From NCBI GenBank assembly GCA_016214655.1, contig JACROC010000007.1, positions 14,785 to 78,784 on the forward strand: a stretch of 64,000 nucleotides of DNA, read 5' to 3'. The translations under genes and the position numbers were made by a program. This DNA is from Candidatus Harrisonbacteria bacterium. Its GTDB lineage: Bacteria; Patescibacteriota; Minisyncoccia; UBA6257; 02-FULL-45-10c. The stretch's first letter is position 1. The number at the start of each line of letters is the position of its first letter. Shown in pieces: positions 3,507 through 57,395 of this stretch. The notes below the pieces were generated by a model, which saw nothing but the letters and a program-made list of their open reading frames with translations, searched no databases and was not told the origin of the DNA.

Positions 3507-4694
3507 TTAAATTTTTTCTAGTGCTTGAGCGAGATCCTCAACTAAATCCTGGAAATATTCGCGGCCGACGGATAACCTTATAGTACCAGATGAAATGCCG
3601 GCCTTTTTTAATTCTTTAGGCGTCAACTGACCGTGAGTCGTAGTAGCCGGATGAATGACTAATGATCTTGCTTCACCGATATTTGCGGCATGCCAAAAGA
3701 GTTTGAGCGATTCGAGAACGATTTTTGCCTTTTTTAATCCACCCCTTACTTCAAAAGCCATCAATCCACCAAAGCCTTTTGGCATAAGACGCTTATTGAT
3801 TTTTTTGCGGTCGCCGTATTCAGGATAAAAAACTCTGCTGACTTTAGGATGACGAGAAAGAAATTTAGCAATAATCGAAGCGTTGCGACAGTGTTCCTTC
3901 ATACGACCAAAAAGTGATTCAATATGATAGCATAAAATCGCGGCATTGTCCGGAGAAATACACGGACCCGTATCGCGAAACCATCCTGTGCGCACTTCGT
4001 CTATCAATCGTTTTTTTCCTAGAATAGCACCGCCAATTACCTCACCATCACCCATATATTTGGAAAGTGAGTGAATAACGATATCGGCGCCAAGCTTAAT
4101 CGGCTGCAAAAGCGACGGAGTAGCTAAAGTATTATCCACCACCAAAGGAAGTTTGTGTTCGTGGGCTAAATTAGCTAATGATTTGATATCAAAAATGTCT
4201 AAAATTGGATTAGACGGATTTTCAACGTATAAAAATTTAGTATTGGGTTGAATGGCTTTTACCCAAGATTTTTCCTCAAATGGATTTTCTACGAAACTGA
4301 CTTTAATTCCAAGAGCGGGCAGGCGTTCTCGAAATAAATGAAATGTGCCACCGTAAATGCGATTGGATGCGACAATATGGCCGCCGGAATGAGCCAAATG
4401 TAAGGCTATTAGTTCAATCGCCGCCATCCCCGAAGAAGTGGCTAAACCAGCTTCGGCGCCCTCCAAAACTGCGAGCCGTTTTTCCAATTTATCTACAGTA
4501 GGATTATTAATGCGAGTATAAATAAATCCCTCTTCGGTTCCGGAGAAAAGCCGTTGGGCACGATCAAAAGAACCCAGAGAAAAAGCAATAACTCGATACA
4601 ATCCTGGCCGGATTTCCGAATCGGTTAAGGACCCACCACCATGAATCTCTAAAGTTTTTGAATGTAATCTTTTAGTAATATCCTTTTTGGCCAT
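3507..4694 (-). CDS. Cys/Met-metabolism PLP-dependent enzyme (O-acetylhomoserine sulfhydrylase / methionine gamma-lyase family)
   Basis: 395 aa; SLSKYMGDGEVIGG with PLP-binding lysine; fold-type I architecture. Confidence 0.75.
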   Translation of the reverse strand: MAKKDITKRLHSKTLEIHGGGSLTDSEIRPGLYRVIAFSLGSFDRAQRLFSGTEEGFIYTRINNPTVDKLEKRLAVLEGAEAGLATSSGMAAIELIALHLAHSGGHIVASNRIYGGTFHLFRERLPALGIKVSFVENPFEEKSWVKAIQPNTKFLYVENPSNPILDIFDIKSLANLAHEHKLPLVVDNTLATPSLLQPIKLGADIVIHSLSKYMGDGEVIGGAILGKKRLIDEVRTGWFRDTGPCISPDNAAILCYHIESLFGRMKEHCRNASIIAKFLSRHPKVSRVFYPEYGDRKKINKRLMPKGFGGLMAFEVRGGLKKAKIVLESLKLFWHAANIGEARSLVIHPATTTHGQLTPKELKKAGISSGTIRLSVGREYFQDLVEDLAQALEKI

Positions 4695-4766
4695 TTTTCA
4701 ATTATATCACAAACAAAAAACCGTGAATTTCTATCACGATTTTTCCTAAATAATCTGGTTCGATAG

Positions 4767-4955
4767 TTACTTACATTTGCAATTACTTTCCGCCTCTTTG
4801 CATTTCTTGCATCTTACTTGCATCATTGCTCCGTCTTTGCATTTCTGCCAATGCGCCGGATCAAAAACTGACGCCGCTTCTCCGCATTTTGGGCACCTGA
4901 AACCTTCGCCCTCTCCGCCGCATAAATCGCAATGTTTGGATGAATAAATCGGCAT
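4767..4955 (-). CDS. small Cys-rich protein (zinc-ribbon / metallothionein-like)
   Basis: 62 aa with paired CxxC motifs (CDLCGG, CPKCG, CKKCK, CKCK); terminator hairpin at 4718-4745. Confidence 0.4.
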   Translation of the reverse strand: MPIYSSKHCDLCGGEGEGFRCPKCGEAASVFDPAHWQKCKDGAMMQVRCKKCKEAESNCKCK

Positions 4956-5006
4956 ATATTAATTTTAACCTAAAATTTTAAACCCGCCTAGGAGGCGGGT
5001 TACAAA

Positions 5007-6236
5007 TTATACAAAAAATGAGAGTTCTGATTTGGTCCGCGTAGTGTGCTGGACCGGAAACTCTGTCATCACAAAACGCATAGCCGAGAGAAGTACGCCG
5101 GGATTCTGGTAAACTTTTAACTCAATGATACAACCCGCTTCCTGATTCCCAAGCGGCGTATCAATAGCTGCATATAATGTCTCATCTTCATTAAGAAAGA
5201 CGGTCCGCTGAAAAGATATTTCTTTCTGCTGATGATCTGCCCGGATAAGCTGCTGAACCTCTGGCGGAAGGCTAGCCGCGGAATCCGGCATATCCTCTTC
5301 ATTAATAAACCAGTAAAACTTGTCTTTTCGAACCGGGAAATAACGGAATTGGTCCAGCTCCGCTATTACTTCCTCCTGAGGACGAGCGTAGACCACCTGG
5401 ACGGTTTGCATATGGCCGGTAGAAGTCATTTTTGTAAGACGCGTAACCAAAGTACCGCTCCGAGGACCAAGCATGCGTCTCCGCAATCGGACAACTGGCG
5501 CACGACCGGAAAAATCAGGTAGATTATTCTTGAAATACCTGTCGTGATAATTGAGACGCGCCATCAGCTTGAGGCCCAAACCAGATTGCAATTGTGAAAT
5601 TATTCCTTCCCGCTCTGCTTGAGACCGGATAAGAAACCGTGCCTCGTAGTAACTGGCCACATTAAATCCGGCTTTTGCCGTGCGCCGCTTAAATAAAGCA
5701 TATCGCGCTTCGGTTACACCAACCTCAAGCCAAGCAACCATGACAACCGCGACCAAAAAACTGGACGACGTCATCAGCCACACCGGAATCCCGGGATAAA
5801 ACGAAAGACCGAAAAACAAAAATATGTAAATAGGGTCGTGAACGAGAATATCTTCCATAAGGCTGACTGAGCCGCTCCTGAGTGCCTGCATGAAATATGA
5901 GAGAAGCGGCTTACGTTCCTGCGGCGATACTTCACGATAGCGCTGCATCGCTTCATGAATATGCGCCGGGAAAAATCCGATCTTCTCAATAATAGGACCG
6001 ACAAATGCCAGGATTAATGTCGATGTCGTAATAAAACCAGCTAAAGTCGTCCCCACAACGCTGATCGCAAGCGCAATCATCTCATCCCTGCCGAATCGCT
6101 TGAATACGTTCCAAAACGGGCTTCCCGGAAGCCGGATCATTTCATTATCGTGATGATCAGTATGCCGGCAACCACGCGAATGACTGTGATCCTGCATGCA
6201 ACCTCCCGAAGTAAACGAACTAAAAAGATTATGCAA
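5007..6236 (-). CDS. membrane protein with His-rich N-terminus, unknown function
   Basis: 409 aa; N-terminal HSHSRGCRHTDHHD metal-binding-like stretch; several TM helices; terminator 4981-5003. Confidence 0.5.
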   Translation of the reverse strand: MHNLFSSFTSGGCMQDHSHSRGCRHTDHHDNEMIRLPGSPFWNVFKRFGRDEMIALAISVVGTTLAGFITTSTLILAFVGPIIEKIGFFPAHIHEAMQRYREVSPQERKPLLSYFMQALRSGSVSLMEDILVHDPIYIFLFFGLSFYPGIPVWLMTSSSFLVAVVMVAWLEVGVTEARYALFKRRTAKAGFNVASYYEARFLIRSQAEREGIISQLQSGLGLKLMARLNYHDRYFKNNLPDFSGRAPVVRLRRRMLGPRSGTLVTRLTKMTSTGHMQTVQVVYARPQEEVIAELDQFRYFPVRKDKFYWFINEEDMPDSAASLPPEVQQLIRADHQQKEISFQRTVFLNEDETLYAAIDTPLGNQEAGCIIELKVYQNPGVLLSAMRFVMTEFPVQHTTRTKSELSFFV

Positions 6237-30265: not shown

Positions 30266-30316
30266 AGAACGTTAACTGCTGATGAATATCATATCAGGAA
30301 ATAAGAATAAAGTTAA
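30266..30316 (-). promoter_or_regulatory. conserved cassette promoter and 5'-UTR module abutting tRNA-His
   Basis: ccctttcaaagaacgttaactgctgatgaatatcatatcagg on + strand, then aaagttaaat and the tRNA 3' end. Confidence 0.6.
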
Positions 30317-30321
30317 ATCTG

Positions 30322-30393
30322 GGTGCCTAGAGAGAATCGAACTCTCGCTACCTCTGCCACAGAGAGGAGTTCTACCATTAAACTATAGGCACC
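30322..30393 (-). tRNA. tRNA-His (GTG), with encoded G-1
   Basis: minus strand G-1 GTGCCTA..CCTCT-CTGTGGC-AGAGG..GAGAG-TTCGATT-CTCTC-TAGGCAC-C; anticodon GTG; G-1:C73. Confidence 0.8.
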
Positions 30394-30483
30394 ATATCTT
30401 TCTGACATCTGACAAATAAGACGCAACACATGACAGATGACTACTAACAATTTACATTTTTTTTTAAAAAAAGTCTAGAAATA

Positions 30484-30510
30484 CGAAAGCCCCAACTGCT
30501 GTTGGGGCCA
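30484..30510 (-). terminator. hairpin terminator after the GC-rich gene
   Basis: agccccaacagcagttggggct plus T-run on minus strand. Confidence 0.45.
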
Positions 30511-30544
30511 CCTGCGAGGACCGCAGGATTTGGAGGGAACTGAG

Positions 30545-30858
30545 TCAGACGACCGCGAGCATCGTGGGGCGATCGGGGATCGCCTTGAAGAAGCCATGGC
30601 CACGGAGGTCCACCCCGTAGTACTTGGCGATCTTCTTGAGCACGCGCCGGCTGACCTTCCGCGGGAAGCGCGCCGCGATCTCATCGCGGACGAACAGTGC
30701 CTGCTCATGGCCGGTGAGCTGCTCCGGCAGCGGCGAGAGCTGCAACCGCACCATGAGCGGCGGCAGCGGCACGATGACGACCGGCTCCTCCACCTTCTTC
30801 CCCTTGGAGATACGAAGGAGATCCAGCAAGCTGCGGCTGATGCTCTTGAGGTTCATGA
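30545..30858 (-). CDS. hypothetical protein in an anomalously GC-rich (about 65%) insert
   Basis: 104 aa from MNLKSISRSLL; strong RBS agagggggtggagtc; palindrome TGAGACAGTAATGTCTCA in its 5' region. Confidence 0.5.
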
Positions 30859-30883
30859 CTCCACCCCCTCTTAACATTCTTGA

Positions 30884-30901
30884 GACATTACTGTCTCACA
30901 T
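30884..30901. promoter_or_regulatory. 6-bp/6-bp palindromic putative operator
   Basis: TGAGACattactGTCTCA between the putative promoter and the RBS of 30545..30858. Confidence 0.4.
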
Positions 30902-30980
30902 CAAAGTACTGATGCCACAATGGATTATTCATCCACCGTAACAATATAAATATAGCATACTTTAATAATTCTGTCAAGTG

Positions 30981-30997
30981 GTCGGACTGCTGGGAAT
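30981..30997 (-). repeat. 17-nt direct repeat of the tRNA-Pro 3' end (att-like)
   Basis: gtcggactgctgggaat identical to 31186-31202 (3' end of tRNA-Pro); the copy continues ..GACCA. Confidence 0.7.
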
Positions 30998-31048
30998 TTC
31001 GCTGCGCTTTTGGCTGGATAGCCCAAAAGCTTGCCGAACCCTTCCGCC

Positions 31049-31125
31049 TCACCCCGACCCCCGCTTAAGACACCTTCGGTTTCTTACGTCGCTTACGCTC
31101 CTATCTTCCTGATACGGGGTGAGGC
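31049..31125. other. long hairpin (10-bp GC stem, 58-nt loop) inside the tRNA-Pro repeat-bounded segment
   Basis: cctcaccccg ... cggggtgagg, followed by a tagttcgattcc T-loop-like sequence. Confidence 0.35.
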
Positions 31126-31186
31126 TAGTTCGATTCCTAAAACAAAAAATAATAAAAACCGAAATTAATTCGGTTTTTATTATTTG

Positions 31187-31257
31187 TCGGACTGCTGGGA
31201 ATCGAACCCAGGCCATATGCTCCCAAAGCATATATACTACCATTATACTACAGTCCG
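31187..31257 (-). tRNA. tRNA-Pro (TGG)
   Basis: CGGACTG acceptor, anticodon loop TTTGGGA, T-arm CTGGG-TTCGATT-CCCAG, discriminator A; terminator aaaaaccgaattaatttcggttttt follows. Confidence 0.8.
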
Positions 31258-31313
31258 AATGTACAAATCGTACTATTTTTAAATCGAAAAATCAAAAGTC
31301 CCGTTTTCCGGGA

Positions 31314-31940
31314 CTAATTATTTAAAAGCTTAATTCCACTCAGCGCAGTCTGAATTGCCAGAAATACAGTAATAGCAGCGAAGACTAAAGATAAAATCGG
31401 ATCGATTAAATTCCAACCCGGTTTTAATATTAAAACCAACCCAGCCAATATCACCACTAACGACTGGCCCAAGTCTACGCCAATATGCCTCATCAGAGCA
31501 GTTTTGGTTATATTCGGCTCTACTATTTTAAAAATGAAAATCATAGATAATCCATTAGCCACAGCCCCGGGAATTGCGAACAGAAGCAATAGGTGACTTT
31601 TAACCGCTATCGGATCAACCATTCTTTCGCCGGCTTCCCTGAAAATCAACGCCGCAGTGGCAAGTAGAATTAAACAACTAATAAAGCTACTGAAAGCCCT
31701 GACTCTCTTTCCGGCGTAATTTTTGGTAGCCACCATCCAAGCAGTCCAAATTGCCAAGAGATGCCCTAAGGAATCTATAAAGACATGAAAGGTATCAGCT
31801 AATAAAGCTACGCTCCCGGAGAGATAGGCGCCGATTAACTGAAAAAAGAAGATCGCTATGCCGATACTAAACGCAATCCAATAAGCTTTCATCTCGCACC
31901 GGCATTCGCCGTTAGAATGACTAAAATGCAGCGGCGACAT
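31314..31940 (-). CDS. cation diffusion facilitator (CDF) family transporter, membrane domain only
   Basis: GSVALLADTFHVFIDSLGH metal-site motif; six TM helices; no cytoplasmic C-terminal domain. Confidence 0.65.
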   Translation of the reverse strand: MSPLHFSHSNGECRCEMKAYWIAFSIGIAIFFFQLIGAYLSGSVALLADTFHVFIDSLGHLLAIWTAWMVATKNYAGKRVRAFSSFISCLILLATAALIFREAGERMVDPIAVKSHLLLLFAIPGAVANGLSMIFIFKIVEPNITKTALMRHIGVDLGQSLVVILAGLVLILKPGWNLIDPILSLVFAAITVFLAIQTALSGIKLLNN

Positions 31941-32784: not shown

Positions 32785-33159
32785 TCAAAATTCTAGCTTT
32801 CTACCTTTGTATTTAAAGGCTTCTTTTAAAAATTTATCTCCGTCTTTTGTGCCGTGTTCAATCATATGACAATTTGCACAAAGCAACATACATTTTTGTA
32901 GCTCAGATTTTATAGAATCCCAGCTTTTATTCGCTACATTGCCAATAGTAAATTCTTTTTCTCGTGGATTCTTGTGATGGAATTGCAATGCCGCTTGATT
33001 GCCACTCCAGTCACATTTTATACATTTATTCCCTAAGTATCTAATCGCGGCTGCCTTAGCTCGAAACCGCCTTATTTTCGTATTACACGATCCGCACCTG
33101 CTTCTTCCCTTTTTTTGATAATCTTTAAATTCATTGCAGCACAATTTACAAATTTCCAT
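32785..33159 (-). CDS. HNH endonuclease with N-terminal zinc ribbon
   Basis: CKLCC..CGSC N-terminal and CIKCDW..HHKNP..N..CANCH HNH core. Confidence 0.65.
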   Translation of the reverse strand: MEICKLCCNEFKDYQKKGRSRCGSCNTKIRRFRAKAAAIRYLGNKCIKCDWSGNQAALQFHHKNPREKEFTIGNVANKSWDSIKSELQKCMLLCANCHMIEHGTKDGDKFLKEAFKYKGRKLEF

Positions 33160-33244
33160 ATATTTCTAGTATAGCATATATTGTTCTACCGAGATAATTA
33201 ATTATTGCAATTCTTTTTATTCTTAGTAATATATTAAATATGAT

Positions 33245-33543
33245 GCCGCGGTAGCTCAGTGGTAGAGCGCAGCCCTAAATTCTTTGGGGCTTTCCATTGT
33301 AAAATGGATTGAAAAATCAGGTGAATTCGGGGAAAACTTTAATCGAGAGATTAAAACAATCCCGAGCCAAGCCGACACACATAATAATTTATGTGCGCGG
33401 AAGGTGTAGAGACTATCCCTTTATGGGAGTAGTCCCGCTCTGCGGGACGAAGCGCCTGACACCCATTAAATAATTGGGTGATGATATAGTCCAAATAGCT
33501 TCGGAAGAGGCTGGCGTCGAGTGTTCGATTCACTCCCGCGGCA
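33245..33543 (+). tRNA. tRNA (probably Phe-GAA) interrupted by a group I intron
   Basis: 5' exon GCCGCGGTAGCTCAGTGGTAGAGCGCAGCCCT; 3' exon GAAGAGGCTGGCGTCGAGTGTTCGATTCACTCCCGCGGCA; acceptor 7/7 bp and anticodon stem CAGCC/GGCTG pair across the insert. Confidence 0.55.
33277..33503 (+). ncRNA. group I intron (about 227 nt) in tRNA anticodon loop
   Basis: P1: exon AGCCCU pairs with internal guide GGGGCU with U.G at the splice site; GGAAGGTGTAGAGACTA and GATATAGTCCAAAT resemble the P3/P7 core of cyanobacterial tRNA-Leu introns; intron ends in G. Confidence 0.5.
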
Positions 33544-33572
33544 CACTTGACAAAATAAATATAGTATGCTAT
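33544..33572 (+). promoter_or_regulatory. consensus sigma70-type promoter
   Basis: TTGACA-17 nt-TATATT directly after the intron-containing tRNA, pointing into the GC-rich region. Confidence 0.45.
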
Positions 33573-33589
33573 ATTATATTTTATACGCT

Positions 33590-34210
33590 GTAGAACCTTG
33601 AAAACAACCAAACCTACCAATTTCCGGCCTCCGGCCACCCTAAATAAGGGTCGCCTGGTGCCGGGAGACGAGACGTGCATCCCCGAAGTGCTTCGATGAG
33701 GAGGCGCCAATGCACTGGCCGTAGCGCTGCCCCTTCCCAGAATGCTGGGGTGGCTAAAAACTGCTTCGGGTGGGAAGGGAGCCTGCTAAACACGAGGAAA
33801 AACCTTGTGTGGGAGGAAAAATGGACTGGCCCTAGTAAGGCCTAAGTAAAAAATGCCAGCCTATAACTCGGCTGGCACCCTTTGACTGAAAATCAACAGC
33901 CGACGGAGGATACTTGCGCCAACCAAGAATCACGGAAGAATGGGACCTGCGGGTCATCGATGATCCCCAATTCCTCTGCGTTCCGAGAGAAGAATTGGAA
34001 GACGAGGAACTGGGAGCGCGAAACCAACGGCAACCGCAGGACTATATCCCCCTTGAGTTGATCTCTGGGGAGAATATCGATGGATGCTGCCGCTGGCTAG
34101 TCTCGGACAACGCCCGGTACGGAGCGCGGGATCCACTGGAGATCCTACTTCGGAGAGAAGCGCGCCGCGAAAGAAGGAAACAGAAGCAACACCGTCCATA
34201 ACTCCTGCTT
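33590..34210 (+). other. GC-rich (about 57%) noncoding-looking region; candidate large structured RNA or foreign insert
   Basis: GC content far above flanks; many local stems (ccggcctccggcc, cccag/ctggg); only weak ORFs (33914..34201 lacks an RBS). Confidence 0.3.
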
Positions 34211-56939: not shown

Positions 56940-57309
56940 GGGGATGAAAAGCTTCGACAATTTATTTTCTGTCAGGTTCGCAAGCTGAGCTGAATTAACT
57001 CGTAAAACTAATTCAAAATTATAAGTGCAAACTTATTCAATCGTCAGCCAGCTTACGCTTTAGCGTAATTTATCCCGGCCTTAGCGTCGGGACTGGCCAT
57101 CGATCAGCCAAAGCTTGATAGGCTGCCAATCGGTGTCATACATCAAGCTCTGCCTTGATAAACCGAGTATCAAAGCGAATTGCAATCGGTAAAGAGAATA
57201 GCGTATTTTGTTAGATCTAAACGTTATTCTCTATAAATTTAATCTAACTAAGCTTGTAGAAAATTTGGCGGGTATAATTTGGACGCGGATGCAATTTCCG
57301 CCATCTCCA
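56940..57309 (+). ncRNA. ssrA: tmRNA (SsrA)
   Basis: 5' GGGGATGAAAAGCTTCGAC (consensus GGGG.UGA..GGAUUCGAC); 3' GGACGCGGATGCAATTTCCGCCATCTCCAC (E. coli GGACGCGGGUUCAACUCCCGCCAGCUCCACCA); acceptor GGGGATG pairs with CATCTCC; tag ORF 57027-57068 GCA.. = ANLFNRQPAYALA stop. Confidence 0.7.
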
Positions 57310-57395
57310 CAAATAAAAAAGACGGTCCCATAACCGCCCATAACTTTTCTGCCTGACTATCAAACTAAAATTTACCTCTACAAAAATCATTAGAA

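Follow-up and report, generated by a model that had tools for sequence, protein, structure and literature searches.

How does a stretch of about 65% GC come to lie between two tRNA genes of a genome whose background is 40%? This question is raised by positions 30480-30860 of the DNA studied here, a 64-kb window from a metagenome-assembled genome (MAG) of Candidatus Harrisonbacteria (coordinates are window positions unless a locus is named). The stretch, hereafter the island, carries one small protein-coding gene on the minus strand, with tRNA-His downstream and tRNA-Pro upstream. The original prediction for this locus had proposed horizontal acquisition or, alternatively, a chimeric assembly. 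Comparison with related loci points elsewhere: we consider it reasonably likely that the island is a resident, vertically inherited and independently transcribed gene of Harrisonbacteria-like Patescibacteria, the GC content of which is held by gene-specific selection, likely on its mRNA. Neither a recent horizontal transfer nor a misassembly has more than a very small probability.

The compositional anomaly itself, described earlier as a jump from about 40% to about 65% GC over an open reading frame (ORF) and its terminator, was borne out by 200-nt and 300-nt GC windows. In the former, GC reaches 0.60-0.675 over 30500-30899 against 0.37-0.43 in the flanks; in the latter, the peak of 0.663 is the top value of all 64 kb and stands 5.5 standard deviations over the window mean (40.3%, standard deviation 4.7%). 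The shift matches the start and stop codons of the ORF exactly. GC at the three codon positions of the coding sequence (CDS) is 0.65/0.38/0.90, a profile typical of a gene from a genome of about 65% GC, against a mean of 0.49/0.35/0.39 for the 41 long ORFs of the window, in which third-position GC (GC3) is 0.39 +/- 0.06 with a maximum of 0.54. Profiling against these 41 host ORFs also confirmed that codon usage is unlike that of the rest of the genome, the gene making the inverse of the host choices (AAG 9 vs AAA 0; ATC 6 vs ATT/ATA 0).

The gene, its signals and its immediate neighbours are as follows.
30321-30392, minus strand: tRNA-His(GTG), conserved as the gene's downstream neighbour and encoded on its strand
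30478-30544, minus strand: conserved 3' untranslated region (UTR)
30488-30509, minus strand: intrinsic terminator with an interrupted U-tract
30545-30856, minus strand: CDS of 103 amino acids plus stop, with its ATG at 30856-30854
30857-30942, minus strand: 5' UTR of about 85 nt, the transcription start being placed from the promoter
30859-30868, minus strand: ribosome-binding site, an extended Shine-Dalgarno (SD) sequence GGGGGTGGAG (motif agagggggtggagtc)
30977-30949, minus strand: sigma-70-type promoter TTGACA-17-TATATT, with TG ahead of the -10 box (11/12 matches)
30981-30997, minus strand: 17-nt exact repeat of the tRNA-Pro 3' end, which runs from the T-loop to a point one base beyond the discriminator and abuts the -35 box
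30998-31185, minus strand: separate element enclosed by the 17-nt copy and tRNA-Pro itself, lying further upstream than the promoter of the gene
31186-31257, minus strand: tRNA-Pro(TGG), intact

The island thus holds the self-contained small gene that had been anticipated, with promoter, strong ribosome-binding site and terminator all present. The minus-strand ORF is real, although the 104-amino-acid frame proposed at 30545-30858 has to be shortened to 103 residues, the CDS starting two bases further downstream.

Conservation and origin of the island

To delimit the protein family, 1.84 billion representative proteins were scanned exhaustively with HMMER (cut-off E <= 1e-3), which gave 14 homologous clusters with proteins of 99-149 amino acids and E-values down to 4e-19. 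DNA was recovered for 12 distinct loci, the window included, from NCBI MAG records, ENA and JGI metagenome contigs and Logan run assemblies. A locus search succeeded with a 5-sequence alignment, a 15-sequence alignment having no stretch conserved enough, and an exact-sequence contig look-up with the window's own protein gave no match.

The ORF is a GC island in 12/12 loci, with gene GC of 54-69%, GC3 of 0.72-0.95 and lower values in the flanks. The following lines give gene GC, GC3 and surrounding GC, the latter averaged over the whole locus or window, except in L014-L016, where the rest of the locus was taken.
Window: 0.64, 0.90, 0.40
L001: 0.62, 0.82, 0.42
L003: 0.65, 0.91, 0.52
L005: 0.59, 0.84, 0.40
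L007: 0.62, 0.87, 0.42
L014: 0.61, 0.92, 0.46
L015: 0.69, 0.95, 0.56
L016: 0.54, 0.72, 0.42

The short contigs L010-L013 behave alike. The highest gene GC is found in the GC-richest surroundings (L015, L003) and the lowest in surroundings that are among the poorest (L016, L005), the excess being 12-24 points throughout. Gene GC that tracks its surroundings with an excess in every case is as expected from in-situ evolution under a gene-specific pull. Moreover, codons differ at 40% of the identical aligned residues between homologs while third positions are still 82-95% G/C; since synonymous sites have diverged and yet remain G/C, the bias appears to be maintained, not merely inherited from one recent transfer.

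Gene order leads in the same direction. Transfer RNA-His lies downstream of the gene and on the same strand in 10/10 loci with enough downstream sequence (window, L001, L003, L005/L009, L007, L010, L014, L015 and L016), and tRNA-Pro, tRNA-Cys or an intron-containing tRNA lies upstream in most. Between the window and L007, neighbouring orthologs share 40-73% identity, values that bracket the 55-57% of the small protein. A DUF456-AttH-CofD-FolD block is found downstream in L001, L014 and L016, and TTTCTAGACTT is kept beyond the terminator in the window, L007 and L010. Because the gene occupies the same syntenic site and its neighbours are orthologous at similar divergence, we favour vertical descent. 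The comparison with relatives therefore went against a foreign origin in the very terms of the original prediction: the gene is conserved in its lineage, with similar local GC.

Among other origins, the one that best withstands these data, although we hold it to be unlikely, is a selfish or accessory cassette from a GC-rich gene pool that would insert repeatedly and site-specifically beside tRNA-His. The gene is an autonomous expression unit of a rare and patchy family, it sits among mobile debris and tRNA-linked repeat elements, and the material inserted between it and tRNA-His differs among loci. However, such a cassette would be bordered by neither repeats nor a duplicated target, no recombinase accompanies it, and the flank beyond the terminator is conserved in the three loci that share TTTCTAGACTT. 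Gene GC also rises with that of the surroundings (0.54 at 0.42; 0.69 at 0.56), as expected in situ, and the divergence of the gene is congruent with that of its neighbours.

Recent acquisition from a high-GC donor via a tRNA-targeting integrative element is less probable still, and we give it very little credit. Textbooks give an atypical GC content next to a tRNA gene as the signature by which acquired islands are called, and the locus resembles such islands in its atypical GC and codons (as in a genome of about 65% GC), its tRNA adjacency and the real 17-nt direct repeat of the tRNA-Pro 3' end that adjoins the gene. Selfish elements also abound, with a group I intron and an HNH ORF in the window and a LAGLIDADG ORF and a serine recombinase in relatives. 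The att-like repeats invoked in favour of acquisition do exist, but their copies at 30981-30997 and 31186-31202 enclose the separate element at 30998-31185 (about 190 nt) and not the gene at 30545-30856. No integrase or recombinase was found between tRNA-His and tRNA-Pro, where the 103-amino-acid gene is the sole convincing ORF and matches no recombinase or excisionase family; nor was there a relative in the viral contigs searched, a protein match in phage records or a DNA match in plasmid records. Unlike acquired tRNA islands, the present one keeps its composition among diverged relatives at a syntenic site instead of being ameliorated. The acquisition claim is not supported for a gene that 12 distinct loci share at a site beside tRNA-His, each showing the same local excess of GC. 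Several of them carry it without the upstream repeat element, its synonymous sites are heavily diverged, and its divergence matches that of neighbouring orthologs. Syntenic and co-diverging across its lineage, the island gene would be a counter-example to the textbook signature.

As for a high-GC fragment spliced into a low-GC contig, the sharp GC boundaries, the MAG source and the possibility that the homologous contig L010 (coverage 2) is itself chimeric speak for it, but the GC shift falls at start and stop codons and not at arbitrary breakpoints, and the same order of AT-rich promoter and UTR, GC-rich ORF, 3' UTR and tRNA-His was assembled separately in NCBI, ENA, JGI and Logan data (deposited MAG, metagenome and run assemblies), which makes a chimera the most improbable of all the explanations considered.

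The product and its transcript

Along with the gene itself, its expression signals are conserved. The promoter layout cTATTGACA ... TGCTATAxT also lies upstream of the homologs in L001, L003, L005, L007, L011, L012, L014, L015 and L016, and a perfect SD sequence and the start codon are kept among homologs. Every homolog shows strong three-base GC periodicity with GC3 far above GC at second positions (GC2), and indels are in frame with conservation at the protein level.

The product is annotated at NCBI only as hypothetical protein HZB99_03865. It is small and basic; its N-terminus is predicted to be disordered and to lead through a proline-rich linker, PLxxRLxLP, into a winged-helix-like domain at the C-terminus. 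Family members have the motifs PLIQRLxLP and KKISRRVLxKIxxHYGVDLRGxGxF in common. AlphaFold2 with the family alignment gave a predicted local distance difference test score (pLDDT) of 84, with residues ~31-103 at or above ~90, and the ~55 C-terminal residues were modelled as a basic domain made of a helix, a short strand, a second helix and a two-stranded wing. No database match was significant; the best structural matches to this predicted domain are small winged-helix domains (the MCM8 C-terminal winged helix, PDB 6l0o; STIV F93, 2co5; and the RPA32 winged helix). At the sequence level, no Pfam or NCBIfam family rose above threshold for any of the 17 members (Tap-RNA_bind came closest with E = 0.032, followed by HTH_26 with E = 0.11, each in single members), the best match in a PDB profile search had E = 0.83, PHROGs and PADLOC returned no significant match, and a word-indexed protein search matched the query alone. 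RNase P protein, excisionase/Xis and ribosomal-protein identities were considered and dropped, no profile supporting them. The family is rare and previously unannotated, and literature searches returned nothing on it or on the tRNA-linked element described below. From the model, the product is probably nucleic-acid-binding, and the fixed position of the gene beside tRNA genes suggests that its role or ligand may be tRNA- or transcription-related.

The original prediction had also pointed to a perfect palindrome between promoter and ribosome-binding site, and both its presence and its location were confirmed. Its reading as a repressor operator fared less well. The structured parts of the two UTRs are listed here.
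30881-30898, minus strand: palindrome TGAGACAGTAATGTCTCA, predicted to fold as a GUAA-capped hairpin
about 30914-30941, minus strand: second 5'-UTR hairpin, close to the transcription start
30526-30539, minus strand: C-rich single strand UUCCCUCCAAAUCC
30511-30527, minus strand: hairpin CCUGCG-GUCCU-CGCAGG

The 5' UTR folds with z = -3.0, and the palindrome lies within the transcript, ~44-61 nt downstream of the -10 box or, counted from the -10 end at 30949, 51-68 nt downstream. A hairpin with a different stem occupies the equivalent place in L001, L003, L005, L007, L011 and L012, ~20-25 nt before the extended SD sequence and often followed by the motif GUACC; each homolog whose upstream region is covered has both a 5'-UTR hairpin of this sort and a promoter of the type described. 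The stems of the 7 homologs are unrelated (TGAGAC, CGAGGC, CATCACC, TAAGCT, CACTTGA and TCACTA, with no common half-site), and the loops are of the GNRA type in 4 loci (GUAA in the window; GAAA in L003, L005 and L007). An autoregulated repressor binding the palindrome would suit a small winged-helix-like protein encoded behind a perfect palindrome, but the putative recognition helix SRRVLxKIxxHYG is nearly invariant among homologs; since the stems vary while this helix is conserved, the palindromes are not the protein's conserved operator. With the location inside the transcript and with GNRA tetraloops, an RNA motif, in four loci, we regard autoregulation through this site as highly improbable. 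Judged from the sequences compared, the palindrome appears instead to be the DNA image of a 5'-UTR RNA hairpin.

The 3' UTR is organised in three parts in 9/9 sequences examined, namely a C-rich strand CCCACCAAaUCC, a covarying hairpin of 6-8 bp and the terminator, and the hairpin loop is UCCU in 5/9. In partition-function folding, the SD sequence pairs with the C-rich 3' UTR at P > 0.8 in 4/7 full transcripts, including that of the window, and translation may thus be modulated by pairing of the G-rich ribosome-binding site with the C-rich, anti-SD-like motif. RsaE/RoxS of Firmicutes are regulatory RNAs whose C-rich motifs pair with SD sequences, and small RNAs derived from 3' UTRs do likewise. 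The present transcript resembles them in having an unpaired CCCACC and a CUCCU loop, complementary to a GGAGG-type ribosome-binding site, just upstream of an intrinsic terminator. It differs in that the motifs stand in the 3' UTR of an mRNA and that their best predicted partner is its own SD sequence.

A further side of this arrangement concerns the following tRNA. Escherichia coli tufB lies behind thrU-tyrU-glyT-thrT, as a protein gene within a tRNA operon, and in the loci studied here a protein gene is likewise fixed within a tRNA cluster, on the same strand as the tRNA that follows. Unlike in tufB-type operons, the gene is equipped with a promoter of its own and separated from tRNA-His by a terminator, so that co-transcription is only possible, as suggested by the interrupted U-tract. 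Within 30393-30487 (minus strand), between that terminator and tRNA-His, we found no consensus promoter; tRNA-His may rely on read-through from the strong promoter of the small gene.

Cause of the GC richness

In the mechanism that we propose, GC at synonymous sites would be held by gene-specific selection, most probably for mRNA properties, that is, for a stable and strongly expressed transcript protected by structures at its 5' and 3' ends; read-through of a weak terminator may in addition feed the expression of tRNA-His. Selection on the mRNA is favoured because the bias is specific to this gene, has persisted and goes together with conserved RNA structures, and we infer that it is the most likely cause of the GC richness. 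At its synonymous sites the gene seems to be kept well away from the mutational equilibrium of the genome (GC3 of ~0.9 vs 0.39), and selection on synonymous GC thereby becomes directly testable in one small gene. The locus also draws attention, within the little-understood Patescibacteria, to a small uncharacterised protein that is apparently expressed at a high level from a message with conserved, structured UTRs.

Three points weigh against this account of an inherited gene under mRNA-level selection. With only 14 clusters the family is rare, as would also be expected of an accessory gene with a patchy distribution. Folding of the CDS relative to synonymous-codon shuffles is inconsistent (z from +0.5 to -3.3, with 5/9 near zero) and gives no clear extra structure beyond the effect of GC content. 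Pairing between the SD sequence and the 3' UTR is not predicted in 3/7 transcripts, and G-rich and C-rich tracts readily pair by chance.

Two readings give RNA a larger part. The first, bolder than inheritance under mRNA-level selection and considerably less probable, although it keeps somewhat more weight than the inserting cassette, holds that the transcript is a dual-function molecule, at once a GC-rich RNA and a message. Its anti-SD-like 3'-UTR motifs (CCCACC and the CUCCU loop) would fold the mRNA back onto the ribosome-binding site of the same transcript or target other SD sequences in trans, read-through would feed tRNA-His, and the tRNA-linked element next to the gene may represent another new class of RNA. 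If true, synonymous-site GC would be kept by RNA function and not by coding needs.

The second regards a structured RNA without coding function as the true product, the ORF arising only from the high GC content. In its favour, islands of high GC within AT-rich genomes mostly turn out to be RNA genes, tRNA genes cluster at this site, each of the two strands folds more stably than its shuffled versions (z ~ -5), four reading frames are open over the island and the UTR structures are conserved. Nevertheless, the three-base periodicity with GC3 far above GC2 in all homologs, protein-level conservation with in-frame indels, the confident AlphaFold2 fold and the conserved start codon behind a perfect SD sequence leave a purely non-coding product with scarcely any probability. 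Rfam returned nothing at gathering threshold over 30480-30905, and only a 10-bit isrG fragment at E <= 10. An open antisense frame is automatic when A-ending codons are avoided, as they are in the sense frame; the antisense ORF at 30530-30874, whose GC profile mirrors that of the sense frame, was rejected as a gene.

The tRNA-linked element and other neighbouring features

The 17-nt repeat at 30981-30997 has a chance expectation of ~0.06 matches, and no third copy was found in the 64 kb with up to 3 mismatches allowed. The element that it delimits with tRNA-Pro contains the following parts.
31046-31056 / 31115-31125: arms of an 11-bp long-range stem, in a GC-rich stretch
31128-31137: 10-nt inverted copy of the tRNA-Pro T-loop region
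31147-31185: bidirectional terminator hairpin

Comparable elements are attached to tRNA genes in several of the related loci.
Window 30981-31185, minus strand: tRNA-linked element, after tRNA-Pro
L007 4723-4922: tRNA-linked element, after the group-I-intron tRNA
L011 516-733: tRNA-linked element, after tRNA-Pro
L014 1505-1722: tRNA-linked element, after tRNA-His
L001 4468-4639, minus strand: tRNA-linked element, after tRNA-Gly
L003 1093-1240 and 3328-3440: partial copies, following tRNA-Cys and tRNA-His
L015 2466-2538: partial copy, following tRNA-Cys

The layout, which the window fits, consists of the tRNA, a terminator, an inverted T-arm copy, a structured core and, last, the tRNA 3' end repeated in direct orientation; this direct copy starts at T-loop position ~57 and measures 17-20 nt, but 58 nt in L011. 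The cores of the L007, L011 and L014 elements are clearly homologous (GGGAAAGGGGUCGGG ... GUUGGAACCGCUGGGUUCCAAAGAGC ... GGGUUCUAGCGAAGCG), with variable hairpins that compensate, and in these three a 5' 'guide' pairs with the split T-arm (GGGUUC ^ UAGCGAAGCG ^ GAUUCC) at the 3' end of the element. A covariance model built from them (R1) scored 138-180 bits on its three training copies and, with filters off, found no meaningful match in window 30300-31400, where only the short motifs GGGGTCGGGG and AGCGAA are shared. No Rfam family matches the L007, L011 and L014 copies. The window element thus shares the layout of these three, while homology with them is not demonstrable.

The gene is found without an upstream tRNA-linked element in L001, L003, L005/L009, L014, L015 and L016, indicating that gene and element are independent neighbours. 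Two explanations of the element were tried and rejected. Retro-copying, suggested by a 'CCA' after the 17-nt copy, was discarded as the CCAC belongs to a conserved promoter context, CCACTTGACA, which is also present in L011, and the other copies have no CCA. A group I intron was discarded as well, there being no Rfam signal, too small a core and a junction after C56 and not U. Hitherto undescribed and linked to tRNA genes throughout these loci, the structured element could be either an RNA of a new kind or a recombination site that folds. Under the dual-function reading set out above, its guide complementary to the local T-arm, conserved four-hairpin core and spare tRNA 3' end could make it a natural guide-plus-replacement-exon device, or again a folded recombination site.

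Several features were recorded in the surroundings of the gene and its homologs. A conserved 185-amino-acid ORF, with no Pfam domains and no GC enrichment, directly precedes the small gene at L003 1241-1798, L014 143-700 and L015 2675-3232. At L010 1-1265, on the short contig of coverage 2, the family domain is preceded by GC-rich hemerythrin-like and response-regulator receiver sequence, apparently frameshifted, and followed by the usual conserved 3' UTR and tRNA-His, the contig being either a real fusion or recombination product or a chimera. L007 carries a free-standing LAGLIDADG-like homing-endonuclease ORF (…GFVDGEG…) at 5530-5990 (plus strand), between the small gene and tRNA-His. In L015, a large serine recombinase (Resolvase, Recombinase, Zn_ribbon_recom) is encoded at 4670-6172 (minus strand) with a called end that overlaps tRNA-His at 4666-4739, which points to an element integrated at the tRNA-His gene there.

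Within the window, a tRNA gene missed by ARAGORN lies at 33241-33545 (plus strand), with a group I intron in its anticodon loop (Rfam 92 bits, 33267-33513); its simplest spliced product is tRNA-Phe(GAA), and an HNH-type ORF adjoins it at 32785-33159 (minus strand). Similar tRNA introns occur at L007 4421-4722 and L001 7793-8029, and group I introns in tRNAs of Patescibacteria have been described (bioRxiv 10.1101/2025.07.03.662931). Abutting the 3' end of this tRNA, the region 33548-34200 (plus strand) begins with a near-consensus promoter of the island-gene type, TTGACA-17-TATATT, downstream of which ~600 nt of 50-64% GC extend up to tRNA-Leu(TAA). The first ~300 nt of this stretch have neither codon periodicity nor an Rfam match and may be a non-coding RNA, and a 95-amino-acid ORF with a coding-like GC profile (0.68/0.41/0.59) lies at 33914-34201. 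A standard tmRNA gene (Rfam 125 bits) is located at 56940-57312 (plus strand).

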